Shown in pieces: positions 4,935-25,153 of a stretch of 64,000 bases of DNA. A model generated the notes under the pieces. It made no database searches, had not been told where the DNA came from, and saw nothing but the letters and a program-made list of their open reading frames with translations. The first letter of the stretch is position 1; each line of letters starts with the position of its first letter. The position numbers were made by a program, and so were the translations under genes. The DNA is from Candidatus Latescibacterota bacterium (GTDB taxonomy: Bacteria > Latescibacterota > UBA2968 > UBA8231). The DNA lies in contig OZ252098.1 in assembly GCA_965248355.1 (NCBI GenBank), forward strand, positions 1,390,098 through 1,454,097, given 5' to 3'.

Positions 4935-5019
4935 GGCCAGGGTAGCCGGGGGCCCTTTGCGGGCAGCCGAGTCCCCGTGGGTCTCGTCAGCCCGGGGTGC
5001 CCGACCTCCTACCGAATCA

Positions 5020-6774: not shown

Positions 6775-6806
6775 AGGAATCTACGCTGGCGTTCCCCCCC
6801 GCGTCC

Positions 6807-7136: not shown

Positions 7137-7194
7137 TGGAGTTGCCCCCGTTTGGTGGACATCCCCGATATTTGGGCAAAAGGAGGATGTCCTC

Positions 7195-7509: not shown

Positions 7510-9185
7510 GCGCTCACCAGGATCAGTATCCCATCGCCACCATGTGCCGCGTCCTGGGCGTCTCCCCCAGCGGGTACTATGCGTGGCGCCGCCGGCAGCC
7601 GTCGGCGCGCTCCTTGTCCGATGCGCAGTTGACGCCCTTGATCGACCAGGTCCACACGTGGTCGCGAGGCACCTACGGGGTGCCGCGCATGGTCCGGGAG
7701 TTGAGAGCTCGCGGACAGCCCGTCAACCCCAAGCGCGTGGCTCGCCTGATGCGGGAGGCCGGCTTGCAGGGCGTCAGCCGCCGCAAGTCGACGTGTACCA
7801 CGCGGCGCGACGCGGACGCTCCGGCGGCGCCCGACCTGGTCGACCGCGACTTCGCGGCGGCCGGTCCGGACGCGTTGTGGGTGGCGGACATCGAGCGCCA
7901 CGAGGCGCTGTGGCACCGTGCGGTGGTGAAAGGCCACCGCCTTCAGTCCGTCGCAGCGGGCTGACGTAGCTGAGGGCAGCCGGATCCCAGGGGACGCGGG
8001 AGAAGGCGACAAGCCGCCCTGACAAAGCCGGGACGGACCAGCACCGTCAGATGGGCCGGGTCCGGCGAGCGAGACAGGAAGGTGTACGCAAGGAACCAGT
8101 GTCAAACGCCCCTCAGGAGACCCACCAGCTCGAACCTGACGGATCCGGGCTGGGTTGCGGTGCGCACTGGCACCGGAGTGGTGCCGGAAACTCCCGCGTC
8201 GGTCGATGTCGCCGGCAGGGAGGCCACGGGGAAGGACTGCGGCGTAACCGTGGCGATACCGCAGGGGCATAGTTGGGCACCTCCCCTGTCGAACGGTGGA
8301 ACAGGGAACGTGGGAACCCTCCCAGCGGCCCCACCCCGGTCCGCTTCGGGCGGACCGGCGGGAAGGCTCGTCGCCAGCTGATGCCGAGGGGAGGGGGCGG
8401 AGGGGCCGTAGTAGTCCGAGGCCGGGAAAGCCGGTCACATGGCGAAGGACCCCAGCGTGTTCGCAGCCACGATACATCCCATGGAGGCCGCTGATGAACA
8501 TCGGCGCACCGTGGCCCGACCTCGAAGAGGCCGAGCCCCGGGTACGAGGAATGCAATCGAAGCTGCACCAGTGGGCGGTGGCCACTGAGCCGCCACCCAT
8601 CGGCATGAACACGGGGAGAGCCGGATGCGGCGAGAGTCGCACGTCCGGTTCGGAGGGCGGACCGCAGAAACCCACTCGTTGCGAAACGAACAGGGCGCTG
8701 CGGTCCGACCCTACACCTACGTGCCGACGTGGTCTGGATTCCTGTATCTGGCCGTGGTCCTGGACGCCTGGAGCCGGCGCGTGGTGGGGTGGGCCATGGC
8801 CGGTCATCTGCGGACGGAGTTGGTCGTGCAGGCCTTGGACATGGCCCTCGGGCAACGACGTCGTCCGGAGGGGGTGATTCATCACTCGGATCAGGGATGC
8901 CAGTATTCGTCGCTGGCCTTCGGGCGCCGTTGCCGGGAGGCCGGGGTGCGGCCGTCGAGGGGCTCGGTGGGCGACTGCTACGACAACGCCCTGTGTGAGA
9001 GCTTCTTCGCCACCCTCGAGTGTGAGCTGCTCGACCGTCGCTGCTTCCCGACGCATGAGGTCGCCCGCCGCGAGATTTTTGACTACATCGAGTCTTGGTA
9101 CAACCGGCATCGCCGTCACTCGGCCCTCAACTACGAATCGCCGATGAACTTCGAACGCGCCCATGTCCAGCCGCAGGTTGCCTGA
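7506..9185 (+). CDS. IS3-family transposase OrfB (integrase/DDE), split by an 822-bp intron-like insertion
   Basis: Exon 1 (7506–7892) ends '...DALWVADI' and exon 2 (8715–9185) starts 'TYVPTWSGFLYLAVVLDAWSRRVVGWAM...' (rve domain). Exon 1 is in the −1 frame relative to orfA. The insertion is a multiple of 3 (822 bp) but contains stops. Removing it gives a canonical 286-aa OrfB. Confidence 0.7.
7893..8714 (+). mobile_element. ORF-less (intron-encoded-protein-deleted) group II intron inserted in IS3 orfB
   Basis: Canonical domain V at 8618–8651 (GAGCCGGAUGCGGCGAGAGUCGCACGUCCGGUUC: AGC triad, GNRA loop). A domain-VI-like helix (ggaccgcag/ctgcggtcc) has a bulged A 7 nt from the 3' end '...CCCUAC'. 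The boundaries exactly restore the OrfB frame. A vestigial ORF from 8494 encodes the RT/maturase N-terminal motif 'RVRGMQSKLHQWA' and then runs into domain V. The 5' end is GAGCG rather than the consensus GUGYG. Confidence 0.7.
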
Positions 9186-9403
9186 TGCGGGATCTGTTCG
9201 CCATGAAGCGGATCTTCCCGGGCCCTCCCGGGACCAGCCGGTGCTCTCCCGACCACCCGGTCTCTCGCACCGGGCCGGGGCGCCACACCGGTACCCCGAG
9301 CTCCACCCGGGCTCCGGGGCCGGGGTACTCCCACTCTACAACTTCCACATTCGGCAAAACCTGCCGAAAGCACTTAACTGTCCACCGTACGGGGGTAGCT
9401 CCA

Positions 9404-10254
9404 GACTTCGAGTTGGCCTTGCGGGGTCTGCTGGGGGGCGCCCCTGTCGGCCTCGTCCATCGCCCGTCTGCGGGCCACGTGGGAAGAGCAGTTCGAGACC
9501 TGGCAGCAGCGGCGGCTGGACGACCGGGAGTTGGTCTACGCTTGGGCCGACGGTATCTACGTGAAGGCCGGCCTGGAGAAGGACAAGGCGGCGTTGCTGG
9601 TCGTCATCGGAGCCCTGAGCGACGGCCGCAAGGAGATCCTGGCGATCCGTGCTGCGCGATCTTCGGGACCGCGGGCTGCCGGCGCCGCGGTTGGTGCTGG
9701 CCGATGGCGGCCTGCCGATCTGGAGCGCCGTCGACCAGGTCTGGCCCGAGGCCGCGCAGCAGCGCTGCTGGAATCACAAGATCCTCAACGTGCTCAACGA
9801 CCTGCCCAAGCGCGTGCAAGGCGCCGCCCGGGCGCTGCTGACGCAGATCCCCACGGCCAAGACCCGTCTGCAAGCCCAGAGACGACGCGACCGCTTCGTG
9901 GCCCGCTACGGCGAGGCCTATCCGGCCGCGTCGGCCACCCTCGAGCGCGACTGGGAGCGCATGGTCACGTTTTGCGACTTCCCGGAGGCGCACTGGAGGC
10001 ACCTGCGCACCACCAATCCGGTGGAGAGCCCCTTTGCCTCGGTCCGTTTGCGGACCAACGCGGGCAAACGCTACAAGCGGGTACAGGGAGCCACCGCCCT
10101 CATCTGACGCGTGCTGAGGGTGGCCGAGACACGATTCCGCAAGCTCAACGCGCCGGAGCTCCTGCCGGCGGTCTACGCCGGACGGAGATGCCAGGACGGC
10201 CAACCCGTCCAAGGGTTGTCCTCCACCGAGGAAGGAATCAAGAGGGCCGCCTGA
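9404..10254 (+). pseudogene. IS256-family transposase, C-terminal portion (frameshifts and an in-frame stop)
   Basis: Three frames carry, in turn, 'DFELALRGLLG', 'LVYAWADGIYVKAGLEKDKAALLVVIGALSDGRKEILAI', and 'CWNHKILNVLNDLPK...FPEAHWRHLRTTNPVES'. A TGA lies at 10105–10107 where a W is expected. The conserved tail 'RVLRVAETRFRKLNAPELL...' continues to 10254. Confidence 0.7.
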
Positions 10255-10627
10255 TCTCGTTTACACACCTTTTGACAGGACCTCCCGTCAGCGATTTGCC
10301 TGACGCCGCTGCAGGCCTTCAAGAAGGGGGTCCCAACCAAGCCCCGAGCCAAGGAGGCTGCCATGCAGAAAATCGCCGCCTAACCCTCATCCCCGAGCAG
10401 GGGCGAGTGTCAGGTCATTACCGTCACTGTAAACCCCGAGCCCAGGTCATTACCATCACTGCACACCAGTTCGTTAACCCTCTGGCGCTCGCGCAGGGCC
10501 TCCAGAGCCACCTTGGCTCCTTGACCTGTGCCGAATGCGTCTTCTTCCTCGCCATCCAGGCCCCTCCGGACAGTGGTTCGGTGCACGCAAAGTCTCGCTT
10601 AACCACCTGTCCAGGACTTGGGGTGCA

Positions 10628-11809
10628 TCACTGCCGCCGAGTTCTACCTGCGTTCTCACACAAAGACCGCAGTTCCTTAACTCGATCCAGCATGTCCAGA
10701 TCCCTGTAGGCATTCATCGCACCGTGCCATTGGGAAATGGCCTCTGGCACTCTGCCTATCCGGACGAGAAAGTAACCAAGGCTTGAACGCGAGTGTGCCA
10801 CTCCCTCCTGATTCCCCTCTAGTTGGAAAGCCTGCACTGCGGCACGCCACAGCTTCTCCGCCTCTCTCACATCCCCGCTTTCAGTACTTAATGATGCTGC
10901 GCGCGCATACACCACTGCCGGTGCCCTCTCCCCCGCAGCCTCGTAAGAGTGTAATGCTTCAATCACCAGTCGGTCCGCTCTACGGGCCTCCCCTGATCTA
11001 TCACATATCCAGGCTAACCTCACGGCCGCCACTGCAACGTGCAATGGGCGCTGCAGAAGTCGCAAGACCCTGAGTGCTTCCTCGAACCTGCCCCGAGCCG
11101 ACTCCCACTCCCCCCGTTCTGCGTGAATGTTGCCAATCTGCAAAGCCGTTAGGCCTTGAACGACCGACGGCTCCGCGTCTCTCAGCAGAGAGATCGCTCT
11201 GAGTAGAGCGCGCTCTGCCTCAGTCTCTCGCGATGACTCTAGGAAAAGCATGGCCAAGTCATGATATCCTCCACCCCTTGCCTCCTTACTCTCCTGTAGG
11301 CGGATCGCTGCCCTTAGCCGCTTCTCTGCCTCCAGCAGGCGACCCTGCCGTCGATATACATTGCCCAAGTTCTGTTCATCTACGGCCTGTGCGGCTCGAT
11401 CTCCAACCCCTCGGTGCCATTCGAGTGCGTATCCATGAAAAAGCTCCGCATCGTCCAAGTTCCCCTCAGAGCTTGCCAGCCATCCTAGGAAGCTGTAGTT
11501 GGCGGCAAGCCGGCCCTTGTCCTCTAGGTTCTTGTTGATCTCATAGGACTCCCAGACAAACTTCTCCGCCTGGATGCGGTTTCCTCGAGCCTCCTCTAGG
11601 TAGGCAAGCTCCAGGCACGCATCCGCAAAAATCCGCATCTCCTTCCCTTCAGAGGCAATCTCTCGGACTCTGCTCGCAAGCTCAGAACACCTTGCTAGGC
11701 CCCCCGCTTGCCTCTCTTGCTCCGCCTCCTTCAACCACTCCCTCAATTGCTGGACAGAACCAGATACGCGCTCCCTCTCAAGCCTTCGTGATTTGATGGA
11801 TCGACTCAC
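10628..11809 (-). CDS. TPR-repeat protein
   Basis: Repeated 34-aa units with W/LG/Y...A...A...P patterns through most of a 393-aa ORF. Local GC is about 56%. Confidence 0.55.
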   Translation of the reverse strand: MSRSIKSRRLERERVSGSVQQLREWLKEAEQERQAGGLARCSELASRVREIASEGKEMRIFADACLELAYLEEARGNRIQAEKFVWESYEINKNLEDKGRLAANYSFLGWLASSEGNLDDAELFHGYALEWHRGVGDRAAQAVDEQNLGNVYRRQGRLLEAEKRLRAAIRLQESKEARGGGYHDLAMLFLESSRETEAERALLRAISLLRDAEPSVVQGLTALQIGNIHAERGEWESARGRFEEALRVLRLLQRPLHVAVAAVRLAWICDRSGEARRADRLVIEALHSYEAAGERAPAVVYARAASLSTESGDVREAEKLWRAAVQAFQLEGNQEGVAHSRSSLGYFLVRIGRVPEAISQWHGAMNAYRDLDMLDRVKELRSLCENAGRTRRQ

Positions 11810-12337
11810 TGTCTATTGCCCATAGCCCAAACTGACTGCGAAGATTGGACATTCCGCTACGTCGAGGATACCTGGCGTTCTTGAAGAAAAAGAGAAGAGA
11901 GGATGGCCTCTTCCTTTGGGACGAAGAGTTGCACGGGGACGGAATGAACACGGGCTACCCACCAGCAACCCCACCCTGAGGACGCTCACCGCTTGCCGGC
12001 ATTCGCACTGACCCGTCTGAGCCGGACTTCGGCGCCGTCGATGGCGGAACGATTCTCAAGCAAGCGGCCGGTCCATGCGAACCCGCCGTCGGGGAGAGCT
12101 CCTGCGGTGCGGACCATGAATCCGGGTGGGAGTGCTACAAGCGAGTCCAGAGGGCGACGAGCTCTCATGTGCCGGGTCCTGAGAGTGGAGCAACGATTCC
12201 GGAAGCCCAACGCCCGCGAAACTCTTGGCTGCAGATCTGCGCCGGTCGGAGATACCAAAGGCGGCCAACCGTTCCAGCAGGGGGCCTCAACCAAGGAACG
12301 AAGTCGAGGGTCGCCCGATCTCCTTCTTGGCCACACC

Positions 12338-13855
12338 TCAGAACGGCGTCCAATCTGGGTCCCTGTCTTCCCCAGGATGGTCGACAATATGCTCTTCGGC
12401 ACCCCCCCCTATCGAGATCACGTAGATATCAGAAGCCCCTCCGTCTGCCGAGGAATAACCTGCGAAAGCTACCCGTGTGCCATCCGGTGCCCATGTGGGC
12501 GACCTTCTCAAGGACCTATCGACAGTGAGTTGTCTGGCCCCTCCGCCATCGGCCGCCATTACCCACACATGGCTCTCGGCGGGCCTGAGCTGCTCGATAA
12601 AAGCGATTTGTGTGCCGTCAGGCGACCAGGAAGGATCCCAGACAGGCCAGTCGTTGGTGGAGAGGCGCCGGACATCACCGCTTGGTAGCTGAATGCGAAA
12701 GATGGCCGAGAGGGTGTCCCGCAAGCTGACATAGGCGATGGACCGGCCGTCCGGTGACCACCTCGGATTGAAGGCACTCACCGGATCAATGGTTAGCTGC
12801 TCGGCGTCGGTGCCGTCGGCCTTCATCACAAAGATATCCGTGTTGTAGAAGCCACTTCCTTTCCGTTGCTCGCGCTCACCGTGACGATCCGATGCGAAGG
12901 CGATTAGCCGACCGTCAGGCGACCAGCAGGGATGCCCGTCCCACGCCTCGTGCTGGGTGAGGTTTATCGGCTGGCTGCCATCGGCGCGCATCAGGTAGAT
13001 CTCGGCGTTCCCATCCCTAAACGAAGTAAATGTCACTCTCAACCCGTCAGGCGACCGAGATGGATGAACTCCGTTCCCCGCCCCCGCTCCGTTTGGAGCA
13101 GGCTTCGTGCTATCCGGTTGCGAGCCATCCGATAGGGCGGTCATACTCAGAGCGGCGGACAGATCGGTGACCTCTCCTGTCTCCAGATCGAGAGAGTATA
13201 GTTCGAGATCGCCTCCAGGGATCGACCCGCTCCGCCGGCTTGAAGAGAACAGCAACTGCGTCTCCCTCAAAGGCGCGACATCGTCATTGGTGAAGCCTGA
13301 CCACTCCGGGGGTGCCTCGAAGTCCACGGTGACGCCCCGTTCACGCAACCCGGCCAGAAAGACCGCCGTTTCCCTGCTCAGCGGATTGCCAGCCAAACCC
13401 AGGCTCTGGAGGCTGTCCAGTCCCGCCACCGCCGACACATCCCGCACCCCATTGTCCGCTAGCAGCAGCACCTGCAACCGCTTGAGCGACGCCAGCGCCG
13501 AAATGTCCTCGATCCGGTTGCTCTCCAGATCGAGAAAGCGAAGCTGCTGCAGTCCAGCCAGGGGAGAGATGTCGATGATCTCGTTGTGGGAGAGGTCCAG
13601 GGCCTCGAGCCGCGTAAGCTGTTCGATCCCGCCCAACTCGGCGATGCCCCGGTCCTCGGCACTCAGGGCGGTCATCTCCGCGCCCGCTTCAGACTCATGG
13701 ACCGCCGCCTGCAGCGCCGAGTCCCGGAAGGCTAAGGCAACTCGGCCGGTTCCACCCGGGTCGGGTCCGCCTGGTCCACGACGGCTTGACTCGCAGCACG
13801 TAAGGGCGATCAATACAAGAAACCCCGTTGCCTTGATGCCCCATGTCGGCGCCAT
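12338..13855 (-). CDS. Secreted leucine-rich-repeat plus PD40/TolB-like beta-propeller protein
   Basis: Signal-peptide-like start 'MAPTWGIKATGFLVLIALTC'. LRR units 'LDLSHNEIIDISPLAGLQQLRFLDLESNRIEDISALASL...'. The C-terminal half has repeated 'SP/WSPDG..IAF' PD40 motifs. Confidence 0.6.
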   Translation of the reverse strand: MAPTWGIKATGFLVLIALTCCESSRRGPGGPDPGGTGRVALAFRDSALQAAVHESEAGAEMTALSAEDRGIAELGGIEQLTRLEALDLSHNEIIDISPLAGLQQLRFLDLESNRIEDISALASLKRLQVLLLADNGVRDVSAVAGLDSLQSLGLAGNPLSRETAVFLAGLRERGVTVDFEAPPEWSGFTNDDVAPLRETQLLFSSSRRSGSIPGGDLELYSLDLETGEVTDLSAALSMTALSDGSQPDSTKPAPNGAGAGNGVHPSRSPDGLRVTFTSFRDGNAEIYLMRADGSQPINLTQHEAWDGHPCWSPDGRLIAFASDRHGEREQRKGSGFYNTDIFVMKADGTDAEQLTIDPVSAFNPRWSPDGRSIAYVSLRDTLSAIFRIQLPSGDVRRLSTNDWPVWDPSWSPDGTQIAFIEQLRPAESHVWVMAADGGGARQLTVDRSLRRSPTWAPDGTRVAFAGYSSADGGASDIYVISIGGGAEEHIVDHPGEDRDPDWTPF

Positions 13856-14027
13856 GTTTGGGGCAATTCCAGACTTGCCCCTACAGGCGTCTTCTTCTCT
13901 CCCCCCGTGCGTCCCTTTCCGAAACCGTCTTGAACCCGTACAAATTGGATACAAGCCGATCATGCGGGGACCTCATGCCGATGGCTGGAACCCGCACTCG
14001 AGGGTACCCCTCCCACCTCGCTCTTCC

Positions 14028-15680
14028 TTAGAAGCTTCCACACTCCGGTTCCTCTATGTCCAATACGAAGCCTAGCTGAGTTGCTAGGCCTCGTCGCACT
14101 TCCCCAAGCCCTGCTCTAATCTCGGACGCTCTCACTCTCCGGGCAATTCGGCCATCTAGCCTAGCTATCAGGCTAATCGAATCTTCCGTCGCGCTCCCCT
14201 CCTCCCCCAACGAATGAAGAACCTCCCGCAGCAATGCAGTTCCCTCTAGGACCCGAAGCCGTGGATTTCTCTTTGCCCTAGCAAGCAATTCCTCTCTGCG
14301 CTGGACCGTCTCTTCTCTTCCTGCTCCAACGGGTACTAGGCTCCTGTATAGAGAATCAACCGAGACTCCCCTAGCCTCCGCTGCCGCTCCTACTGCGTAT
14401 GCTTCCGCAAACTGACTAGTCGCCCTAACTATCTCCCGGTACACCATGTGATCGTGTTCACACACTTCCTCCATAGGTAGATCTGATGTTGAAACAGTCC
14501 CCTTCGCAGATACCGCAAGGGTATCAAGGCGCCGACTCGTGGCCAGCAGCCCTGGTCCATCGCCTTCCACCGCACGTGCCATGCTAGCCCTCAAGACCCC
14601 GACCGTAATCTCACCGCGCACTCTCCTACCATTGACAAAAACGGTGGGCGTAGCACGAACGTCACATGCATGCCCAATTGCCATGTGGACACTTAGAGCA
14701 TCGCTCAATTCTCCCTTGTCTCGCACCTCTTCATAGCCCTGCGAAGCTATCCCTGACTCCTCTATCACATCCCAAACGACGCCTTGATCAAGCATCCCTC
14801 GATGGCCCATCAGACGGTCATGGAATTGCCAAAACACTCCCCGTTCCTCTGCAAAAATGGCCGCCTCATGCGCCGGAAAGGCGTTCTCATGAAAGGGTAG
14901 GGGAAAATGGATCAGTTCAAGCCTGACCATTCCCGGATCCTCACTAGCTAACACTTGCACCACGGAGTCAGCCCTAGCGCAGAACGGGCACTCGTAGTCG
15001 TAGAACACGGTCAATCTAATGGGCGCTCCGACGTCGCCAAACCCTGGGGCCACCTCCACCGGGCTTCCGAGGGCCTCACACCTAGGGCCCAGGGGTCGCC
15101 TTATCAGATACCGCACACCAAAGCTCTCGCGAAGCTTGCGCAGAAGAGAAGCTCTCTCACTCCGCAAGTACTTTGCCGTCAGGGCCTCACGCACCAAGAC
15201 TAGGAACCCCCGACTGGGATCATCCCAAACTCCCAGCCGGCTCAACAGCCGTCCCCGCTCCCTAGCGCTTGACGTATCAAACCTTCCTGAGGACCTCAGA
15301 TCCTCAATAATCCCCCACAGCCGCTTTTCCACCTCGACATGAATTGCACTTCCCAGATTGTTGGCGGCCAGCTCATCGGAGAACAGAACGGAATCCACTA
15401 GCTCCACTTGGCGATCGAAGATCGAGTCCTTCGTGGAAATCACCCGAGCATCCTGCACCATCTCTTCATAAATTTCCAGGTCACCTACTCGGCCCACAAA
15501 CCGAGACTCAGCGAAGCTCCGCACTCCCGACCCCGAGCCTGCCAAGAGCAAAACGACCAGCCACACCAACGGCAGCCGGCCCACTCGACCTCCTGGAGTG
15601 AGAAACGCCCGGAAATACCTACCCGCCTCTCCGCAGCAATGCCGATGCCCATGGTTCACCTTCCCCCTGGCTTCTTCCAT
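14028..15680 (-). CDS. DsbA-like thiol:disulfide oxidoreductase (thioredoxin-fold) protein with an N-terminal TM segment
   Basis: Thioredoxin 'YDYECPFCA' (CPFC) active site. An N-terminal TM 'LPLVWLVVLLLAGSG' follows the chosen start 'MEEARGK'. Confidence 0.55.
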   Translation of the reverse strand: MEEARGKVNHGHRHCCGEAGRYFRAFLTPGGRVGRLPLVWLVVLLLAGSGSGVRSFAESRFVGRVGDLEIYEEMVQDARVISTKDSIFDRQVELVDSVLFSDELAANNLGSAIHVEVEKRLWGIIEDLRSSGRFDTSSARERGRLLSRLGVWDDPSRGFLVLVREALTAKYLRSERASLLRKLRESFGVRYLIRRPLGPRCEALGSPVEVAPGFGDVGAPIRLTVFYDYECPFCARADSVVQVLASEDPGMVRLELIHFPLPFHENAFPAHEAAIFAEERGVFWQFHDRLMGHRGMLDQGVVWDVIEESGIASQGYEEVRDKGELSDALSVHMAIGHACDVRATPTVFVNGRRVRGEITVGVLRASMARAVEGDGPGLLATSRRLDTLAVSAKGTVSTSDLPMEEVCEHDHMVYREIVRATSQFAEAYAVGAAAEARGVSVDSLYRSLVPVGAGREETVQRREELLARAKRNPRLRVLEGTALLREVLHSLGEEGSATEDSISLIARLDGRIARRVRASEIRAGLGEVRRGLATQLGFVLDIEEPECGSF

Positions 15681-15688
15681 CTTGCTTT

Positions 15689-16474
15689 TCACTCCGTGAA
15701 ACGAATACCCAAGAAGGTTGCTGGGGCGAACAGCAAGGGCCCGGTGTCGGCCCATGTACTCCAATCTGAGAATTCTGGCCAAAATGAGTGCGCCGCGAAA
15801 TTTCCTCTCCAGATCTCACCTCTCGGTGCACCCGCCACGAAGAGGTCGCTAAACGGAATAGCCATCTCAACTACCCAGCTCTCCCTCATCCTCCCTACCC
15901 CAGTCAAGAGACCCTTCGCGTCCCACCGCACTCCATCCAAGAATGCCATCTCCACTAGAGTCTCGTCAGAAGGCGTTCCATCCCTTCGAATCTGCTCCAC
16001 CGCCTGCTCTGACGGCCACCACCTATCGTATACCAGATTGTCTGCATTCACACAGATCTGGAAGAAAGGACCACTTCCACTAGCTTCTGGCTCCAGGAAG
16101 ACTTCCACATCATCACTAGATAGCGCAATTTGCTCATCATCGCGCGCAATCCCTGCTCGTTTCACTTGCCCCTCAACACGATAGGGTGTCTGAAAAGACA
16201 CATAGAAATACGTAGAGTCAAACTGAACACACACATTCGTCCGAGCCATGGGCACGATGGCGCGGCCTGAGGTCGTCACCTTCAGATCAATACAACTTGC
16301 CCCTCCCCATTCCCCCGCACCTAGATCACCATCCACTCTTACCCCCTCAACGGCCACAGGCACTACCAAGTGCGGAGTGACTGTCCCGTCCATTGGCTTG
16401 CTCTCACCACTGACCATCCCGACTGAGCAGATGATCCCCCCGACAAGGGCCAATAGTACCGCATCCTTCCCCAT
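15689..16474 (-). CDS. Hypothetical secreted protein (possibly CBM9/DOMON-like)
   Basis: Start chosen at 'MGKDAVLLALVGGIICSVGMVSG' (signal-peptide-like). The long ORF extension upstream would overlap the neighbouring gene. Confidence 0.35.
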   Translation of the reverse strand: MGKDAVLLALVGGIICSVGMVSGESKPMDGTVTPHLVVPVAVEGVRVDGDLGAGEWGGASCIDLKVTTSGRAIVPMARTNVCVQFDSTYFYVSFQTPYRVEGQVKRAGIARDDEQIALSSDDVEVFLEPEASGSGPFFQICVNADNLVYDRWWPSEQAVEQIRRDGTPSDETLVEMAFLDGVRWDAKGLLTGVGRMRESWVVEMAIPFSDLFVAGAPRGEIWRGNFAAHSFWPEFSDWSTWADTGPLLFAPATFLGIRFTE

Positions 16475-16628
16475 CGCCAGTTTCCTCCCCTCTCTCCTTA
16501 CCGCCAGTTCCAACCCAGACGCCGAGGAGGCTCCCCCGGAAAGCAAGAAGAGGCGCGCGCGCTTTCCGACGGAGCCTCCCTTTTGGGCGTGCTCTGGCAA
16601 GTCTTGTCCTGGAACCTCCCAGATCCCC

Positions 16629-16934
16629 CTAAGGCACCAACACGCACTCCCAGTGGCAGAACATATCCACCATCGTATTTGGGCAATAGTAGGCATCTCC
16701 ATTGCTACAGGAGTCCAGCACTGGTTTCCAACTGTATTGGGAATTGCAGTTGTCGTCACACTGCTGCTGCGCCGTGCCGTATATGTCCGCAGGCACGTCG
16801 CAGTTGTAGGTGCTGCAACTCAACGCCGCGCCGCACCGATACGTCAAGGGCGTCTCACCACAGGTCGGGTTGTTTCCAGCAACAGGTACGGCCACGCCGA
16901 CATACGCGGCTGCCAACCCCAACCCAGCCATCAT
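16629..16934 (-). CDS. Small cysteine-rich secreted protein (12 Cys in about 80 mature residues)
   Basis: Signal-peptide-like 'MMAGLGLAAAYVGVAVPVAG' followed by a Cys-dense mature region (CGETPLTYRCGAALSCSTYNCD...CDDNCNS...CSNGDAYYC...FCHWEC). Confidence 0.4.
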   Translation of the reverse strand: MMAGLGLAAAYVGVAVPVAGNNPTCGETPLTYRCGAALSCSTYNCDVPADIYGTAQQQCDDNCNSQYSWKPVLDSCSNGDAYYCPNTMVDMFCHWECVLVP

Positions 16935-17113
16935 TCGGGAGACAACCCCCCGATTCTCCCTTGGGTCACCAGAAACGATTGCCATGTGCGTACTTCCCTC
17001 CCTCTTCTAAAGGGTTATGTGGAAAATGCCTCTCCAAAAAAGCGCGCGCCTCATAACCAGAATTCCCTCACTCACAGTCCAAGTGGTTGGCCTAGCCTTC
17101 TCAAGGCCAATCC

Positions 17114-18220
17114 CTAATCGTTCACTCCGTTCACTCTTGGATGATTCCTAAACACCACGGCCGCATCTTCCAAGAGTGCAGCCGAAGGCTGCACGTAGAT
17201 CTCGTGCAGATCCACTAGGGAAGGAATCCTCAATTCCTCTGGAGTCAACTCGTCTCCGAGAATGGCGGAGACCCACAGTGGAATCAGTAGGAACCGTTCA
17301 TCTCGGTGAATCTTCGCCATGTATTCTATTGCGCGATGCCACCTCGCCATCTGACTTCCGGCTCCTCCACTGCGTCTGCCTTCCTGATCATGATACAAAT
17401 GGTAGGTCCTAGCTTCTGATACATGGACGACGCCTACATCCGCCTGCATCAACCTGTACCCCAGCTCCCATCCCTCACTGAATTCAATCTGCTCATCAAA
17501 TCCCCCTACCTCCAGAAACGCACTTCTTGGCACCGTCACATTATGAGGAAAAAAAGCCACCCAGGCAAGTCCGCTGTCTGGCCAAGCCAGGAGAAGTTCC
17601 TCAATTTGCTTCTGTAGTACATCCTGCCCTGGAAAAGGATAGGCACCTTGCACGGACCTAGATCGTATCTTCTCGAAGTAACCTGTCACCATCTCAGGCG
17701 AGACCCGGACATCCAAAGATCCATCCCTCAAGTGTCGCTTCACAACGCTGGAGATGACGACATCCGCCTTCAATTCCCCACTCGTAGGGTCATCGACAAA
17801 CTCCAAGGTCGGTATACACCACAGACCTCCGGTCAACGCACAATGCCGGCGCATGTCGACAGTCCCCAAATAGACTTCCAACCATCCTGGGTCCGGAAGC
17901 GCGTCCCCATCCAAGAACATCACACACTCGCCTCGCGCCACAGACGCACCCACATTCCGAGCCTTACACCTCCCCTCTCTCTTGGAAAGACGCACTTGGC
18001 GTATCACTAGACCTTGGGACTTCCAATACTGCACCCTGACGTGGCTATTGTCATCGCATCCATCTAGGACCACTACAATCTCATACAGTTGCCTGCTGAC
18101 CGTCTGCGCACTAAGGCCAGCAAGAACCAAATGCAGTCGATTCTCCTGATTATGTGTAGCAATTACCACACTGGCCAGAGGACTCAATCGAGAATCTCCG
18201 CCTCCAGGTGGGTCCACCAA
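17114..18220 (-). CDS. Family-2 glycosyltransferase (GT-A)
   Basis: 'SVVIATHNQENRLHLVLAGLSAQT' and 'FLDGD' (DxD). The start was moved to a TTG or GTG near 18215–18220 to avoid a 112-bp overlap with the upstream gene, and is uncertain. Confidence 0.55.
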   Translation of the reverse strand: MVDPPGGGDSRLSPLASVVIATHNQENRLHLVLAGLSAQTVSRQLYEIVVVLDGCDDNSHVRVQYWKSQGLVIRQVRLSKREGRCKARNVGASVARGECVMFLDGDALPDPGWLEVYLGTVDMRRHCALTGGLWCIPTLEFVDDPTSGELKADVVISSVVKRHLRDGSLDVRVSPEMVTGYFEKIRSRSVQGAYPFPGQDVLQKQIEELLLAWPDSGLAWVAFFPHNVTVPRSAFLEVGGFDEQIEFSEGWELGYRLMQADVGVVHVSEARTYHLYHDQEGRRSGGAGSQMARWHRAIEYMAKIHRDERFLLIPLWVSAILGDELTPEELRIPSLVDLHEIYVQPSAALLEDAAVVFRNHPRVNGVND

Positions 18221-20664
18221 GCCGAATCTTGGCTCTTCTTTGCGTCCGGCCTTGTCCACAGAACGTGGGGTATCTGTTTCACCGCGTTTGAGCAAACCAC
18301 TCGATGGAGGTCCAGACTGCCAAAATAGTACTCTTCGAAGGGGGCCTCCTCTTGTTCAGCTTCAGTCCTCAATCGTCTACTCTTGCAGTTTCTCCCGTTC
18401 ATCCCACCCAGTCCGATAACCATGCTGTGGAACTCCACAGAGAGCCATCTCCCTTCGACGAACACCTCCGCCCAAGTGTGAGCGAACGGTGTCTCCCTCC
18501 AGCCGCCACACACGAATCTGTGTCCCAGTGGATATCCAAGTAATGCTCCGCTGACCTCTCGAGCAGGGATGCCTGCCAAGCGACAGAGGGAAATGAAGGC
18601 TCGAGCAGCGGTTATGCAATGCATCCCGGAACCCCCATCCAGTGCCTGATAGGTGCTACACTCCAAGCACTGGCAGGTTTCCTCTGTCTTCTCGAAGCGC
18701 TTCCCCTGCCTTATGAAGTCGTACAATGCCCGCGCCTTCTCAATGTCGCTCCCCGACCCAGCAACCCCCACTAGCACCTCTCTGATCCGCCGATCGTCCG
18801 CAATGGAAGGTGGCACCGACATGAACTCCCCACTGTACGGCGCTGCCAAGAGACCCACTTCCATTTCCCCGCTCCGAAGTGCGTTCACTCTCAAATCGCA
18901 GCAGTAGCCCACCTCCGCTGAACCACCCGGCTCCAAGTCTACCCCAAATCCATAGAAGAGACCGCAGGCCGAGAGTAGATGATTCCGCATCGCCTCTGGT
19001 TCCACCGACCGCAGTTTGATGTCCCGTTGTCGTCTATGCTGAATCGGGAATGGCACGAAGAGCAGAACTCTCCCGGAGGAAGTGCCAGCCTGCACCGATA
19101 CCCTATATTTGAGTCTCAGCACACAGCTGTCTTGTCTAGTCTGGACAGATCCCCGTTCTACAAAGAGGAAGCGTTGTCGCCTTGCCATTTGCGCGCGATA
19201 CTCCGCCTCGAAGAACGTCGAACTGTTTCGGTGCAACCAGTTCCACGATCGCAACAGGTCGTACGGGGTGGCAGACTCTTGACTAGAGGGCATACCCGCT
19301 CTCCTGGCCTCTGCAAGTAGTCTATGAACCTCACCCTTGCTTCCGAGCAACGGGTGCCCAATTCTCAGATATTTGACAAAGGTTGTCTCAGAGACTCGAT
19401 GTAAGCCGCCAGAGACCCCACTACGGGGATCCTCCTTAGGGTCGACCATTTCCTCAATCACTTGGGATACTCGGTCTACATTGTCCCACTCCCTGACGTG
19501 TCTCGAGAAGGCTCTGCATCGCTCCTCGTACTCCTGATTTTCGATTACGCGATCAACTGTCTTTCTAATTTCCTCTGCATTGGTCCACTGATTCCACTCC
19601 AGCTTAATTCCGAGACCAAGGCTACCTACTCGGTTTAGGTGGTACTCTTGATCAAGATGATCCGCCGCCCCGACAACCGGCACCCCACTCCGAAGAGCAT
19701 GGTATACGGTACCGGCGCCCCCTACCGTGATGACTGCAGATGCCTCTGCCGTAATCCAAGAAGCCGGTAGAAAATCCACTATCCGCACATTTCTAGATGG
19801 TGTAGTGGGAGCAGCCTCCCGGCTCCTGGGGCCTAACACGGTGCAGATAACACGATAGCGCTCCGAGAGCACGGAAAGGGTGTCTATCAGAAACCCCTCA
19901 AGAGCATGTCCCGTGCTGCCGCAATTGAGATAGATTAGGGGCAGGGTTGAGTCCCATCCATTTGAATCCAGGGTGACCACCTGGCGTGGCCGAGCAGGAA
20001 GGTCCAGCAGAGGTCCCACATAGTAGGCTCCCTTCCATTGGCCGGTAGGGTGGAACTGAGGCACATCCGCCACTAGAAGGCAGCTGCGCTTTCTCTTCGC
20101 CGGAGACGAACGGCATCTCCTCAAGTACTCCTCAAACGGCCCCGGCTCTGTCTCGAACCAGGTGGGAAGTTGAATCCTGTGACCGTAACTTGGGCTATTG
20201 TACGCGGCCTCGACCATGGCTAGATGGAGTCCCATGAGGCCAGCCGAGATTTGAAGGGTGGGCCGCATGTCACCAATTACGACATCGGGTCTGGTGTCCT
20301 CAATAACATCTCGTTCTGACTCAACGCAGGCATCGATGGACTCCATGTCGTAGAAGTCATACCTTGCAGATTTTATGGATCTGTCCATGGCTTCCTGAGA
20401 AAGGCTCTTCACATGCCGTACGGGGAAACCATGGTCCTTCACCATTGCAGAATTCACTCCGACACCGGCAAACTCAACATGGTGGGTTCGCCTGCGCAAG
20501 AATCGCCCGATCTTTATTGGGCGCAACGTATGCGCCAAGGAGTCACCATGAAAGAACACCAGGACTTTGAGTCGCCGCGAAGGAACACCGGAAGAAGTGA
20601 ATCTCGGGATGAGCCTTTCCAGGCTCTTCTTGGCTCTCTGGGCCAACTGGGCTGATTGGATCAC
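18184..20664 (-). CDS. Fusion protein: GT1 (MGT/UDP-glycosyltransferase-like) N-terminal half plus a transglutaminase-like cysteine-protease domain C-terminal half
   Basis: GT1 C-terminal domain 'VDFLPASWITAEASAVITVGGAGTVYHALRSGVPVVGAADHLDQEYHLNRV'. C-terminal transglutaminase core 'CQCLECSTYQALDGGSGMHCITAARAFISLCRLAGIPAREVSG...HTWAEVFVEGRWLSVE' (Cys-His-Asp). Local GC is about 52%. Confidence 0.55.
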   Translation of the reverse strand: MIQSAQLAQRAKKSLERLIPRFTSSGVPSRRLKVLVFFHGDSLAHTLRPIKIGRFLRRRTHHVEFAGVGVNSAMVKDHGFPVRHVKSLSQEAMDRSIKSARYDFYDMESIDACVESERDVIEDTRPDVVIGDMRPTLQISAGLMGLHLAMVEAAYNSPSYGHRIQLPTWFETEPGPFEEYLRRCRSSPAKRKRSCLLVADVPQFHPTGQWKGAYYVGPLLDLPARPRQVVTLDSNGWDSTLPLIYLNCGSTGHALEGFLIDTLSVLSERYRVICTVLGPRSREAAPTTPSRNVRIVDFLPASWITAEASAVITVGGAGTVYHALRSGVPVVGAADHLDQEYHLNRVGSLGLGIKLEWNQWTNAEEIRKTVDRVIENQEYEERCRAFSRHVREWDNVDRVSQVIEEMVDPKEDPRSGVSGGLHRVSETTFVKYLRIGHPLLGSKGEVHRLLAEARRAGMPSSQESATPYDLLRSWNWLHRNSSTFFEAEYRAQMARRQRFLFVERGSVQTRQDSCVLRLKYRVSVQAGTSSGRVLLFVPFPIQHRRQRDIKLRSVEPEAMRNHLLSACGLFYGFGVDLEPGGSAEVGYCCDLRVNALRSGEMEVGLLAAPYSGEFMSVPPSIADDRRIREVLVGVAGSGSDIEKARALYDFIRQGKRFEKTEETCQCLECSTYQALDGGSGMHCITAARAFISLCRLAGIPAREVSGALLGYPLGHRFVCGGWRETPFAHTWAEVFVEGRWLSVEFHSMVIGLGGMNGRNCKSRRLRTEAEQEEAPFEEYYFGSLDLHRVVCSNAVKQIPHVLWTRPDAKKSQDSAWWTHLEAEILD

Positions 20665-20689
20665 TTTAGAAGTCCCTATTCCAGGCTCA

Positions 20690-20800
20690 TTCCGGGAATA
20701 CTCCTCGAGGCTCTCCCGGCCCCGGCCGTTGGCGACGGTTCCACGCCCGATGGACCGACTCCACGGTACCAGAGCATCTTGGGGCGCCCAGAGCCAAGAG
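20690..20800 (-). pseudogene. ISL3-family transposase fragment
   Basis: The nucleotide sequence 'ctctcccggccccggccgttggcgacg' and the translation '...GRGRESLEEY' parallel the ISL3 copy at 6090–6120 ('DGRGRESLEAYF'). Confidence 0.4.
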
Positions 20801-21389
20801 CGGGGTGACGTCTACGTGTACCATGAGCGCCGGAATCTCCCCCAACCGGGGAATGGCGCCATTCTGAACACGCGCGGCCGCCCCCCAAGTGCGTAATCCG
20901 CGGCCATCTTGGAGGTGCTAGGCCGAGCCCCGATGTGGGCGTCAGTGCGATGGGATCGATCAGATTTCCCACCCTGTGCGATTGAATGTCATGGCTCGCC
21001 ATCTGGCCTAGGCAGCCCTGGAAAGGGGACGCTGGCTTGAGAAATAGTAGCTATGGTGTGGCCTCTGACATTAAAGAGGCTCCGAGGGGAGGTCCTGTGC
21101 AATCGAGAAACCGAAATTAGGCGGTCCTTCTCAATCTCTACCGGTTGGCCGTCCTGGAACCTCCTTATATAAACCTCGGGCTAAGAGGTCCGTCAAGGGA
21201 CCACCCAGATTCGCGCACCCCGGATTTGGTCGGGGTCGGTGGTACCGGATCGGTTCTCCCCCTCCTGAGATGAGGTGCACCGAGAACGGGGACCTGCACC
21301 GCAAACCCCGGAGCGGCCCCCGGTCCAGCCAGTGACGCTTGGCGAACGAGGGAATGGGTGTGAGGGATGGTCTTGGCCTCCTTCCGCTC

Positions 21390-21540
21390 CACGTGTCATT
21401 CGGCCAGTTGCTGCTCCATGTCCCGGAGGCCGAAGCTACGGCCATTGATCTGCAGGACATCGCAGTAGTGCAGCAGTCGATCCCAGATGGCCGTGGCCAG
21501 ACCCGTCGGCAGCATCTCCGGCCATTGGCGGATGCTCTTC
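21390..21540 (-). pseudogene. IstB-like (IS21 helper ATPase) C-terminal fragment
   Basis: Minus-strand 'MLPTGLATAIWDRLLHYCDVLQINGRSFGLRDMEQQLAE*' matches the IstB C-terminal pattern 'AILDRLLHH..V..I.G.SYRL'. Confidence 0.35.
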
Positions 21541-21570
21541 TTGGAGGTGATCGATCAGGGTGCTGGCGCG

Positions 21571-22749
21571 CTGCTAGTGTCATGTCGTAGAAATTACTGT
21601 ACATCTTCATGAGGATGCTGTAGGTTTCTCTTATTCTCTTTCCGAAAGGAGAAACCTATGGCGAGGGGACGACCGTTACCGGCGATAGAGTTGAGTCCGT
21701 CGGACCGGGACCAATTGGAATCGATGGCCAGATCACGGAGTCTCCCCCACGGGTTGGTGCGCCGAGCCGAGATGGTTCTGCTGGCCGCCGACGGCTGGCC
21801 CAATCAGGCGGTCGCCGCCGCGGTAGGGGTGACGCGGGCGACTGTGGGCAAGTGGCGGCGACGCTTTCTCGAGGGCGGGCTGCCGGGCTTGCATGATGAG
21901 CTGCGTCCGGGGGCGCCGCGATCGATCACGGATGAGCAGGTCGCCGAGGTGGTCTACAAGACCCTGAAGACCAAGCCCAAGGACGAAACCCAGTGGTCGG
22001 TGCGCTCCATGGGCCAGGAAACCGGCCTGTCCAAGGATGCGGTACATCGCATTTGGCGCACCTATGGTCTGCAACCCCACCGACACAAGCACTTCAAGCT
22101 GTCCACCGATCCCTTCTTCGTGGACAAAGTACGGGATATCGCCGGGTTGTACCTGAATCCCCCGGAGCACGCCATGGTTCTGTGCGTGGACGAGAAGAGC
22201 CAGATCCAGGCCTTGGAACGAACTCAGCCGATGCTGCCCTTGGGCTTGGGATACGTGGAAGGGGTTACGCACGACTACAAGCGGCACGGCACCACCACCC
22301 TGTTTGCCGCCTTGGACGTGGCCACCGGCGAAGTGATGACCCAGTGCAAATCCCGGCATCGTCACCAGGAATTCCTCCAGTTCCTACGCCACATCGAGAC
22401 CAACGTGCCCGAGGATCTCGATATCCATCTCGTCGTCGACAACTACGCCACCCATAAGCATGCCAAGATCAAGCGATGGCTGGCCAACCGTCCCCGGTTT
22501 CACGTTCACTACACCCCCACGTATGCTTCGTGGCTCAACCAAGTGGAGATCTGGTTCGGGATCATCACGCGCCAGGCCATTCGGCGCGGGTCGTTTCGGA
22601 AGGTCCCGGAGCTGGTCGAGCGGATCGAACGGTACACCGACAAGTGGAACGCCAAGGCCCGGCCCTTCGTCTGGACGGCGACGGCCGATTCCATCCTCGC
22701 CAAGGTCAAACGACTTTGTGAGCGAATCTCTGCGACATGACACTAGCAG
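21571..22749 (+). mobile_element. IS630/Tc1-mariner-family insertion sequence, intact
   Basis: Terminal inverted repeats 'ctgctagtgtcatgtcgtagaaatt' at 21571 match the reverse complement of 'gaatctctgcgacatgacactagcag' at 22724–22749. A single 360-aa transposase ORF lies inside. Confidence 0.7.
21658..22740 (+). CDS. IS630-family transposase (DDE_3)
   Basis: Winged-helix N-terminus, '[12 protein letters not shown]' and '[17 protein letters not shown]' DDE-region motifs. RBS 'aaaggag' upstream. Confidence 0.85.
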
Positions 22750-22846
22750 TCCGTTGGAAAAAGGCGAGGGATGAGGGAGGTACCAACTCCCCTCGTACGG
22801 GTCCTTTACTAGATTAGGCAGGCCACGTACCCAAGGAGCCGGATCG

Positions 22847-24284
22847 ATGTCGCTGAGCCGACGACCCGAGAGCCAGCAACAGGAGATGTGGGTGCCGACC
22901 CACACGCTGCCGGAGGCGCCGGGGTGTCCGTTCTACACGCAACTGATTCAGTTGCTGCTGGCGGCGCATGGGTTTGACCGCTTTGTCGAGTCTCGGTGCG
23001 CCCCGTATTACGCCGAGACGCTGGGCCGGCCGAGCATCGCGCCGGGGGTCTATTTCCGCATGCTCTTGATCGGCTACTTCGAGGGCCTGGGCTCGGAGCG
23101 GGGCATCGCCTGGCGGGTGGCCGACTCGGTGTCGCTGCGCCGTTTTCTGGGCTACGCCCTGAGCGAGGCCACGCCGGATCACTCGAGCCTGACGCGCATT
23201 CGTCAGCGTCTGCCGTCGGAGATCTACCAGGAGGTGTTCAACTGGGTGCTGACCGTGCTGGCCAAGGAGGGGCTTTTGAAGGGCAAGACCCTGGCGGTGG
23301 ACGCCACGACCCTGGAGGCCAACGCCGCCCTGCGCAGCGTCGTGCGGCGGGACACCGGGCAAGGCTACCGCGAGTACCTGGAGGACTTGGCCCGGGCCGA
23401 AGGAATCGAGACGCCGACGCGCCAGGACCTGGCCCGGCTCGACAAGAAACGGCCGCGCAAAGGCTCCAACCAGGACTGGAAGCATCCCCGAGGATCCGGA
23501 GGCCCGCATCACCAAGATGAAGGACGGGCGGACCCACCTGGCGCATAAAGCCGAACACGCGGTCGATCTGGACACCCAGGCCTTGGTGGCGGTCCAGGTG
23601 ACCGGCGCCGACGAGGGAGACACCTCGTCCCTGTCTTGGACGCTGATCCAGAGCGATCTGAATCTGCAGGCCGTGTCGCAGGATCCGAAAGCCAAGAACC
23701 ATCTGCATGGCCAACCGATGTCGGAAGTGGTGACGGACAAAGGGGTATCACAGCAACGACACGACCAAGAGGCTGAAGGGCGCTCAGATTCGCGGCTACC
23801 TGTCCGAGCCCGACCGGGGGCGCCGTCGGTGGAAGGACCGGGCCGCCCAGGCGGCCGTGTATGCCAATCGACGCCGGATTCGAGGGCCCCGGGGCCGCGC
23901 CCTGCAACGGCGTCGAGCCGAATGCGCGGAACGCAGTTTCGCTCACACCTACGAACGCGGGGGGCTGCGACGGACGCACCTGCGGGGCCACGCCAACATC
24001 TACAAGCGGCTGAGCCTTCATGGCAGCGCCTTCAATCTGGGCTTGGCCATGCGGAAGCTCACCGGCTGCGGGACCCCGAGGGGTCTGCGGGCACTGGGGG
24101 CCGTTTTTTCGGTCTTCAAGGCGGGTTTGCAGGTCGCTCGGGCCCTCTCGCGTCGCGCCGGCGGCCTCTTCCTCACCTGGGTCCGGGATCGATTCCTCAT
24201 CCGTTGCCGCCGCCTTCACCCAGAGCGACCGGACGTGATCCAAAACGTGGCTTTCTCAACGGGCTGCTAGACCTCATGTATTGA
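22847..24284 (+). pseudogene. IS5/IS1182-family transposase, frameshifted (at least 3 frames)
   Basis: Frame 1 has the DUF772-like N-terminus '...YFRMLLIGYFEGLGSERGIAWRVADSVSLRRFLG'. Frame 2 has 'KDGRTHLAHKAEHAVDLDTQALVAVQVTGADEGD'. Frame 3 has '...AVYANRRRIRGPRGRALQRRRAECAERSFAHTYERGGLRRTHLRGHANIYKRLSLHGSAFNLGLAMRKL'. Confidence 0.65.
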
Positions 24285-25152: not shown

Positions 25153-25153
25153 C

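Follow-up and report, generated by a model that had tools for sequence, protein, structure and literature searches.

A low-GC gene island in a strain-specific insertion of a Gemmatimonadaceae chromosome: probable foreign origin and a putative divergent glycosyltransferase–transglutaminase gene triad

The window analyzed here, a 64,000-nucleotide stretch of contig OZ252098.1, contains a 10.4-kb block of seven genes with low GC content that lies among insertion sequences (ISs). We consider it very probable that this block, the cargo, is foreign DNA within an insertion of 19.4 kb that is specific to this strain, rich in ISs and located at a variable site of a Gemmatimonadaceae chromosome, and that its core is a divergent copy of a conserved set of three genes. 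These genes, called the triad below, encode a fusion of a GT1-family glycosyltransferase with a transglutaminase domain (GT1–TGase), a GT2-family glycosyltransferase and a tetratricopeptide repeat (TPR) protein. The horizontal acquisition proposed in a preliminary description of this DNA is supported by the composition of the island, by an empty site in close relatives and by the taxonomic affinity of the encoded proteins.

Composition and insertion site of the island

The preliminary description had noted a drop in GC content over about 10 kb and had proposed sliding-window GC and tetranucleotide analyses; both were run and gave a quantitatively foreign composition. In 1-kb bins the GC fraction was 0.534–0.624 between 10 and 21 kb, against a mean of 0.692 (sd 0.050) in the 43 bins outside the insert, and the cargo as a whole (10300–20700) had a GC of 0.572 compared with 0.714 and 0.722 in the core flanks at positions 1–4937 and 24364–39000, respectively. 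GC at third codon positions (GC3) was 0.55–0.69 in the seven cargo open reading frames (ORFs) versus 0.90–0.97 in four host core genes, with the transposases lying between them at about 0.79–0.80. The TETRA correlation of tetranucleotide z-scores was 0.07–0.23 between the island and host segments, whereas host segments correlated with each other at 0.65–0.87 and with the related genomes L066 and L067 at 0.72–0.83. The compositional contrast of the island with its host is far beyond chance. A GC of about 0.58–0.62 persists past the cargo, across the right-hand IS debris, to about 23 kb.

A comparison with related genomes for an empty site had also been suggested, and such a site was found in L069 (GCA_022827165.1) and in L071 (the Logan assembly of read run SRR16351679), where position 4937 of the window joins position 24364. 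Window segments 1719–4937 and 24364–26932 correspond in L069 to 1752–4970 and 5005–7567, at 94–96% nucleotide identity and only 34 bp apart, and L071 gave an equal result. Since the flanks are directly joined in these relatives, the whole 19.4-kb block, ISs and cargo alike, is strain-specific. Relatives L066–L068 match the window only up to position 5158 and then hold other content, namely genes for giant cadherin/FN3 proteins, so that the site is a variable hot spot. The right junction cuts off the last codons of an isochorismatase gene. No target-site duplication was seen when the junction sequences were read, no tRNA gene was found in the window and no integrase domain was found among the insert ORFs scanned with Pfam. 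At the left end of the block, positions 4938–5290 (minus strand) hold the 3' remnant of a gene with a C-terminal domain of the type used in type IX secretion (T9SS), recognized by weak hidden Markov model (HMM) matches at 5012–5254. This remnant is common to L066–L068 up to 5158 and missing from L069, and it suggests that the ancestral neighbour may have been a large C-terminal-domain protein truncated by IS activity.

Cargo and flanks also differ in taxonomic affinity. The flanking core proteins fall into 90%-identity clusters with proteins named "Gemmatimonadaceae bacterium" from metagenome-assembled genomes, and it is on these cluster mates that the identity of the host rests. The relatives of the GT1–TGase protein are at most 42% identical to it and almost all labelled Latescibacterota. 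Three cargo proteins were checked, namely GT1–TGase, the DsbA-like protein and the leucine-rich repeat (LRR)–PD40 protein, and all were singleton clusters among about 15 billion proteins. The insertion can thus be classed as a genomic island: its composition deviates, close relatives do not have it at this site, and mobility genes lie at its borders.

We weighed the possibility that the block is a chimera created by joining at shared IS repeats during metagenome assembly, or else an ancestral segment deleted from the relatives compared. The source, a 5.5-Mb contig present in NCBI and ENA, is assumed to be a metagenome assembly, ISs bound the block on both sides, its IS630 element falls in a cluster of 132 members spread over many large contigs, and the site is rearranged in L066–L068, all of which fit such an origin. 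However, both ends of the block lead back to one host locus, as seen in L069 and L071; a chimeric join would not usually do so, and a chimeric assembly is therefore unlikely. The GC3 of the cargo, 0.3 off that of the host genes, and its unrelated TETRA signature argue against long residence as an ancestral segment, and the singleton status of the checked cargo clusters speaks against either version. We give this alternative a very small chance.

Concerning the mode of arrival, the flanking ISs named in the preliminary description were all recovered, with an IS256/ISL3/IS3 nest on the left and ISL3/IstB debris, an IS630 and an IS5-like element on the right (Table 1); its comparison with a composite transposon was not supported. 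The insertion resembles IS-bounded islands and composite transposons in its foreign composition, its absence from a close relative and the ISs at both borders, but it differs from them in that self-BLAST revealed no matching IS pair and neither a target-site duplication, an integrase nor a tRNA gene was seen. A composite transposon was rejected because the flanking ISs belong to five families, are mostly decayed or nested and share only a 54-bp ISL3 fragment. The cargo would instead have arrived by an IS-associated illegitimate insertion or replacement at the hot spot, without composite-transposon transposition. ISs shared with Latescibacterota as a vector were likewise rejected: those of the insert have no nucleotide match to any triad locus and show only distant transposase protein matches (28% identity for IS630 in locus L050 and 45% for IS3 in L058).

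The triad in other genomes

The GT1–TGase protein has 106 homologues, almost all of about 832 aa, which are 36–42% identical to it over 93–98% of the query, more than 90 of them at E<1e-140; their source names are Gemmatimonadota or Latescibacterota. Genome distribution was scanned with one genome per GTDB species. Of the 64 triad loci, about 55 carry the label Latescibacterota or Latescibacteria; the others are assigned to Gemmatimonadota (six), Planctomycetota (two) and "uncultured bacterium" (one), and these nine all have a GC of 0.51–0.66. Up to four loci occur per genome. In 61 of the 64 loci the GT2 gene lies 3' of the fusion gene in the same orientation, directly so in all but two, and its products are 36–43% identical to the window GT2. 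BLAST matches to the TPR partner, a protein of about 400 aa, were obtained in 41 of 65 loci; its gene adjoins the pair, after the GT2 gene in one clade set and before the fusion gene in another. Searches of the full-text literature yielded nothing on a GT1–TGase fusion or on the cassette, and in the Latescibacterota loci the genes are annotated merely as 'glycosyltransferase' or 'transglutaminase domain-containing protein'. The solved relatives found were the natural-product and lipid UDP-glycosyltransferases (UGTs) YjiC, OleD, CalG1–4 and UGT51 and a bacterial transglutaminase-like cysteine protease (PDB 3ISR), none of which fuses both halves.

The same arrangement was found in the window: a fusion protein of about 830 aa with a UGT-type GT1 domain, a linker bearing the SWNWL motif and a Transglut_core domain with a Cys-His pair, its gene being adjoined on the 3' side by a GT2 gene in the same orientation. 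The TPR protein of the window aligned over its full length with that of locus L001 (BLASTP, E=5e-27, 26% identity), and we take it to be an orthologue of the triad TPR partner. From the homology of the partners, including this end-to-end TPR match, the cargo core appears to be a divergent copy of a conserved, uncharacterised and unnamed triad. In a neighbour-joining tree the window fusion protein formed a lone long branch outside all sampled clades, a deep position that points to an unsampled donor.

The likeness to the Latescibacterota loci covers the invariant motifs of the fusion (SWNWL…, an H-C catalytic pair and HTWAE), the position of the GT2 gene, the orthologous TPR protein and the presence nearby of CBM9-type and thioredoxin-fold proteins. 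The window copy differs from those loci in its low identity (at most 42%), its isolated branch and its Gemmatimonadaceae host of about 72% GC. In addition, its TPR gene stands 5.3 kb off the GT2 gene, separated by four genes, and a DsbA-like protein replaces the ResA/TlpA-like pair; the A24 peptidase, FMN-bind-like, FG-GAP/C-terminal-domain and DUF4159 proteins are missing, and its Cys-rich ORF has no conserved leader. The window copy is unusual in four ways: a different phylum, a displaced TPR gene, a non-homologous redox partner and an orphan Cys-rich ORF.

To describe the neighbourhoods of the triad, non-overlapping ORFs of the loci were clustered and the representatives were scanned against Pfam and NCBIfam. 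"Cys-rich" clusters from a greedy clustering of overlapping ORFs were rejected as out-of-frame shadows of FG-GAP and DUF4159 genes. The neighbourhoods differ greatly between clades. Recurrent neighbours are ResA/TlpA-like thioredoxin pairs, a Peptidase_A24-family membrane protein (35 bits against a cut-off of 26.5 bits), a protein of about 200 aa with an FMN-bind-like motif recognized by sequence reading and no Pfam or NCBIfam match, FG-GAP proteins of about 700 aa with a FlgD_ig/Por_Secre_tail C-terminal domain, DUF4159, DUF1573 and CBM9 proteins, ABC-type permeases and sigma-54-type regulators. In the metagenomic triad locus L072, which holds all three genes, a phage-type integrase gene (11026–11964) lies 4.4 kb from the triad, a hint that integrative elements may carry the triad as well.

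Cargo genes and their possible function

Table 1. Features of the insertion, with coordinates in the window
Feature	Position	Strand	Remarks
Strain-specific block (IS nest, cargo and IS debris)	4938–24363		19.4 kb; missing from a 94–96% identical relative
ISL3-family element, frameshifted transposase	5408–6776	-	45-nt inverted repeats at 5408–5452 and 6732–6776
IS256/Mutator-family element, split by IS3	6777–10290	+	Transposase_mut on 6663–7226 and 9649–10107; outer ends approximate
IS3 element inside IS256	7195–9185		HTH_Tnp_1, HTH_21 and rve on 7195–7509, 7506–7964 and 8625–9185
Low-GC cargo	10300–20700	-	Seven intact same-strand genes
TPR protein, 393 aa, putative cytoplasmic	10628–11809	-	Pfam TPR_12 E=2.9e-22; no hydrophobic segment
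LRR + PD40/TolB-like beta-propeller, predicted exported	12338–13963	-	PD40 E=2.9e-30, LRR_4 E=2.9e-17, TolB propeller E=2.9e-51
DsbA-like thiol-disulfide oxidoreductase, predicted membrane-anchored	14028–15680	-	DSBA E=1e-13, Thioredoxin_4 E=2.5e-12; residues 248–394 of the long ORF
CBM9-like protein, predicted exported	15689–16474	-	Pfam CBM9_1 E=0.0028 (below cut-off)
Mini-protein ORF, 118 aa	16629–16985	-	Hydrophobic signal-like segment at 18–37, then about 80 residues with 10 Cys
GT2 (GT-A) glycosyltransferase, putative cytoplasmic	17114–18295	-	Glycos_transf_2 E=1.7e-19; start probably near 18217
GT1 (UGT-type; EryCIII-like_C/UDPGT) + Transglut_core fusion, 826 aa	18184–20664	-	Putative catalytic C683/H729/E744
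ISL3 fragment	20694–20746		85% identity over 54 bp to 6082–6135
IstB (IS21 helper) C-terminal fragment	21399–21554	-	IstB_IS21 E=3.1e-9, profile positions 190–237 of 238
IS630-family element, intact 360-aa transposase	21571–22749	+	25-nt inverted repeats; DDE_3 and HTH domains
Decayed IS5/IS1182-like element	22847–24284	+	DUF772 transposase domain E=9.3e-20 on 22847–23548

The domains assigned earlier to the seven cargo genes (Table 1) were confirmed by Pfam and NCBIfam for the TPR, LRR–PD40, DsbA-like, GT2 and GT1–TGase proteins. Two assignments had to be qualified: the mini-protein, described as having 12 Cys, has 10 in its translation, and the CBM9-like protein is weakly supported, with a match to the HMM of c18, the cluster of true CBM9 proteins, at E=9e-4 and a BLASTP match to a CBM9 protein of locus L036 at E=7e-6 over about 220 residues. 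The MGKD start of the CBM9-like gene is preceded by a Shine-Dalgarno-like GGGGAGG tract, which makes this short start the better one, and the protein so defined has an N-terminal signal-like segment. The short start leaves an otherwise 640-bp gap, which the mini-protein ORF fills. The LRR–PD40 protein probably starts at MAPTW (13855), with a lipobox-like LIALTC seen by eye and lying below the hydropathy cut-off. The DsbA-like protein has a hydrophobic segment at residues 33–56 and unique N- and C-terminal extensions; elsewhere its thioredoxin domain alone is conserved, with a query coverage of 25–40% for most matches and up to 61%.

The GT2 gene abuts or overlaps the stop of the GT1–TGase gene at 18184. 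The invariant H590/C591/H637 of the fusion alignment correspond to H682/C683/H729 of the 826-aa ORF, with Glu (E744) at the third position of the putative catalytic set. Between the two domains, the linker of about 180 residues that carries the SWNWL motif was matched by no Pfam or NCBIfam model in the scans run, and the AlphaFold2 model of the fusion has a mean pLDDT of 76. The public gene call for this protein (P0001) is 734 aa long and starts at an internal Met, residue 93. As homologues align from residue 1 of the 826-aa ORF, which starts at GTG 20664, the deposited annotation is probably truncated at its N terminus.

Hydropathy profiles show N-terminal hydrophobic segments in the DsbA-like, CBM9-like and mini-proteins and no hydrophobic segment in the TPR, GT2 and GT1–TGase proteins, which are thus probably cytoplasmic. 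Upstream of the TPR gene there is a terminator-like hairpin with a T-run behind it (11893–11914, minus strand), so that transcription of this gene may be independent of that of the six genes upstream. The hairpin lies in a gap of 528 bp (11810–12337) that contains no recognized Pfam domain.

The explanation that we consider best overall, at a probability of about 0.5, joins the foreign island with the following mechanism. The TPR, GT2 and GT1–TGase proteins, which have no signal peptides, would act in the cytoplasm on one or more co-encoded exported proteins before their Sec export, and the mini-protein would be the first candidate substrate. In this scheme the TPR protein would be a substrate-binding adaptor, the two glycosyltransferases would attach sugars from nucleotide sugars, and the papain-fold transglutaminase-like domain (Cys-His-Glu) would trim or cross-link the substrate. 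After export, the membrane-anchored DsbA-like protein would make the disulfides of the 10-Cys protein, and the product, together with the LRR–PD40 and CBM9-like proteins, might work at the cell surface in adhesion, in interaction with a host or neighbour, or in antagonism. Taken by itself, this cytoplasmic modification of an exported protein is a tentative proposal; we favor it because of the predicted topology of the proteins, the obligatory TPR partner, the paralogous triads with their own secreted arrays and the recurrent thiol-redox and Cys-rich partners.

Three families of small, predicted secreted Cys-rich peptides, with a conserved leader and a hypervariable core, occur in triad loci that also hold ResA/TlpA-like thioredoxins. 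In the first, the ORFs have 93–152 aa and 4–12 Cys, with a leader of the type M..LREFFxSSSGLAPARQGLGLGWVISALTGVAILLGAREAAA. This family is present in 14 genome loci, where tandem copies are frequent, and an FG-GAP gene (about 700 aa, with a T9SS-type C-terminal domain) follows every copy; no member matches a Pfam or NCBIfam model. Members were recorded in L001, L004, L008, L010, L028, L040, L044, L047, L048, L050, L054, L055, L062, L063 and L073–L077. Besides an AxA site, the leader contains …EFFxSSSGLAPARQG/LGLGW…, and since the loci also hold a Peptidase_A24-family protein, the RQG/L motif might be a class-III (prepilin-like) cleavage site. A metagenome search with the leader motif returned only four short contigs, a small number though in favour of the link, all four with components of the system, one of them in the order thioredoxin, peptide, GT1–TGase. 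Locus L073 repeats the full architecture, and there the peptide gene was annotated by the gene caller. The families c32 (L006, L012, L020, L022) and c50 (L015, L021, L056) belong to other triad clades. Their peptides have a signal peptide of the type MKRIFVRAG…AKA and, behind it, a variable core that is about 40 aa long and contains 4–6 Cys; their genes adjoin those of ABC-2-like permeases and DUF1573 proteins.

An extension of these observations would make the triad the cytoplasmic maturation machinery of a new class of secreted, disulfide-rich, hypervariable mini-proteins, "conotoxin-like" or like ribosomally synthesized and post-translationally modified peptides (RiPPs), with the prepilin-peptidase-like protease and the thioredoxins as partners in Latescibacterota. 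We regard this extension as speculative and rather improbable. If it were true, the window would represent such machinery captured across phyla together with a new, orphan 10-Cys substrate and a non-homologous DsbA-type oxidase.

Several observations weigh against the explanation of a foreign island whose triad modifies a co-encoded exported protein. The TETRA correlation between the island and the pooled Latescibacterota loci is 0.27, so that the donor phylum is taken from protein affinity only. The window TPR gene is separated from GT2 by the four genes and the terminator-like hairpin, whereas elsewhere the two are adjacent. The DsbA-like, LRR–PD40 and mini-proteins have no homologue in any triad locus, and linkage of the DsbA-like and LRR–PD40 genes to the triad was seen only once. 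The HMMs of the A/B-type accessory set (Peptidase_A24-like, ResA/TlpA-like, FG-GAP with C-terminal domain, DUF4159) likewise found nothing in the island, where only the c18 CBM9 model matched, weakly as given above.

Other difficulties concern the mini-protein. A word-indexed search among 5.8 billion clusters yielded no relative, and an exhaustive HMMER search against 1.84 billion representatives gave two matches at E of about 1e-4, both to giant repetitive proteins and judged spurious. Compared with the peptide families of the triad loci, the mini ORF was not matched by the leader HMM at E<10, scored at most about 5 bits with the full-length HMMs and reached an hhalign probability of at most 1%; only the architecture, a hydrophobic N terminus followed by a Cys-rich C terminus, is common to both. 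Its single-sequence AlphaFold2 model (pLDDT 46) is unusable, and the ORF is missing from the gene calls of the source. The ORF is preceded by GGGAGGG 8–10 nt before the ATG, its in-frame codon score beats that of the other frames and its number of Cys is even; from these properties and from its position we estimate a chance of about two in three that the ORF is genuine. A 16-nt GC-rich inverted repeat (GAGGCGCGCGCGCTTT at 16550–16565 and AAAAAGCGCGCGCCTC at 17037–17052, with 471 nt between the arms) brackets the mini-protein gene. What the window and the other triad loci appear to share is a theme and not sequences, namely a putatively cytoplasmic triad accompanied by a thiol-disulfide oxidoreductase, a beta-propeller protein and a short ORF for an exported Cys-rich product. 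The suggestion in the preliminary description of a secreted Cys-rich effector encoded with its maturation enzymes is a plausible hypothesis: the repeated occurrence of triads with Cys-rich peptides and thiol-disulfide oxidoreductases agrees with it, but the mini-protein of the window is an orphan that matches no such family.

The nearest relatives of both glycosyltransferases also count against a protein substrate, as they point to non-protein acceptors. The GT2 family profile best matches chondroitin synthase (6e-33), TarP and PglI, and also Dpm-type enzymes, and the GT1 domain is closest to small-molecule and lipid UGTs (the sterol glucosyltransferase UGT51, YjiC, OleD and CalG). These affinities favor a different function, in which the triad would make a glycosylated lipid, a small molecule or an envelope glycan, for example a diglycosyl lipid acylated or amidated by the transglutaminase-like domain, and the exported neighbours would be passengers or users of the glycoconjugate. 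A CBM9-like protein encoded in the island, true CBM9 proteins (c18) in several triad loci and the great differences between clades in triad neighbourhoods are compatible with this idea as well. Yet up to four paralogous triads per genome, each beside its own array of secreted proteins or peptides, would be odd for a generic lipid or glycan pathway, and the island revealed neither a flippase nor a polymerase or lipid-carrier enzyme. The obligatory TPR partner suggests protein recognition, and the search from the peptide side led to triad components in four of four loci. On balance we find such a lipid or glycan product possible, if somewhat unlikely; it is the main competitor of the mechanism proposed above and close to it in probability.

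A further candidate was a glycocin or another RiPP bacteriocin, in which the mini-protein would be a precursor that is glycosylated, freed of its leader by the transglutaminase-like domain, disulfide-bonded and released as an antimicrobial. Sublancin-type glycocin clusters have the composition sunA–sunT–bdbA–sunS–bdbB, and papain-fold leader peptidases exist among the C39 peptidases and the lasso B proteins. Like the sublancin-type clusters, the island combines in an operon-like block a small Cys-rich ORF, a GT2-family enzyme and a dedicated thiol-disulfide oxidoreductase (DSBA/Thioredoxin_4), and its Latescibacterota relatives have conserved leaders and hypervariable cores. However, the island GT2 is not SunS-like, as SunS structures (7msp, 7msn) matched its profile only marginally (E=0.0045–0.0065 versus 6e-33 for chondroitin synthase). 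No C39-ABC exporter, immunity gene or other RiPP core enzyme was found in the island, which in contrast holds an additional GT1–TGase and TPR protein. The N terminus of the mini-protein is of the hydrophobic Sec type without a double-glycine leader, and its mature part, with 10 Cys in about 80 residues, greatly exceeds glycocins in size. A glycocin-like bacteriocin is therefore highly unlikely. A lasso-peptide cluster was rejected, as the island has no Asn-synthetase-like ORF and the transglutaminase domain matches PF01841. Anti-phage defence was also rejected, since the sole PADLOC match was to a generic TPR model.

Other features of the window and significance

In the ISL3-family element on the left, the ORFs at 5666–6676 and 5413–5937 match Pfam DDE_Tnp_ISL3, HTH_Tnp_ISL3 and Zn_ribbon_ISL3. 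A stretch of about 660 bp between 7964 and 8625 interrupts orfB of the IS3 element and holds an Rfam Intron_gpII match (domain V–VI) at 8616–8714 (plus strand, 63 bits). The stretch resembles the remnant of a small group II intron without an ORF, inserted in IS3, which is itself nested in IS256. On the right, the ISL3 fragment lies only 30 bp from the GT1–TGase start, and positions 20665–21570 contain no Pfam domain except the IstB fragment. The ORF at 23517–24284 has no DDE match and was placed in the IS5/IS1182-like element from its sequence only.

Two further patches of the window lie outside the insertion. Positions 39544–48800 may be a second foreign or defence-like patch. It includes a 1734-aa fusion of DEAD/Helicase_C and UvrD helicases with a GC3 of 0.77, below that of the core genes, a 660-aa protein with a C-terminal nucleotidyltransferase domain and two stretches of low GC (0.55–0.57), where a DUF2971 protein is encoded at 47965–48756. 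A direct repeat of 444 bp, with 90% identity, is found at 45356–45798 and 47143–47584. Near the right end, in another low-GC patch (0.536 at 63–64 kb), a 213-aa ORF at 62797–63435 (minus strand) has a Por_Secre_tail/FlgD_ig C-terminal sorting domain, with a match (E=4e-21) to the corresponding domain of the Latescibacterota FG-GAP cluster.

As a mobile-DNA event, the insertion is an ordinary IS-associated island at a hot spot. Its significance lies in a cross-phylum transfer documented by the empty site, the composition and the protein affinity, and in a widespread cassette without a characterised member. The survey of other genomes gives this cassette a comparative context, namely the triad and its repeated links to thiol-redox proteins and to small secreted hypervariable Cys-rich peptides. 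If the link is not functional, the island would be an ordinary IS-associated acquisition of envelope-related genes. If it is functional, the triad would represent a new way in which little-studied phyla make disulfide-rich peptides, glycosylated or processed, for the cell surface or for secretion, and the seven-gene island would offer a compact set for heterologous reconstitution.

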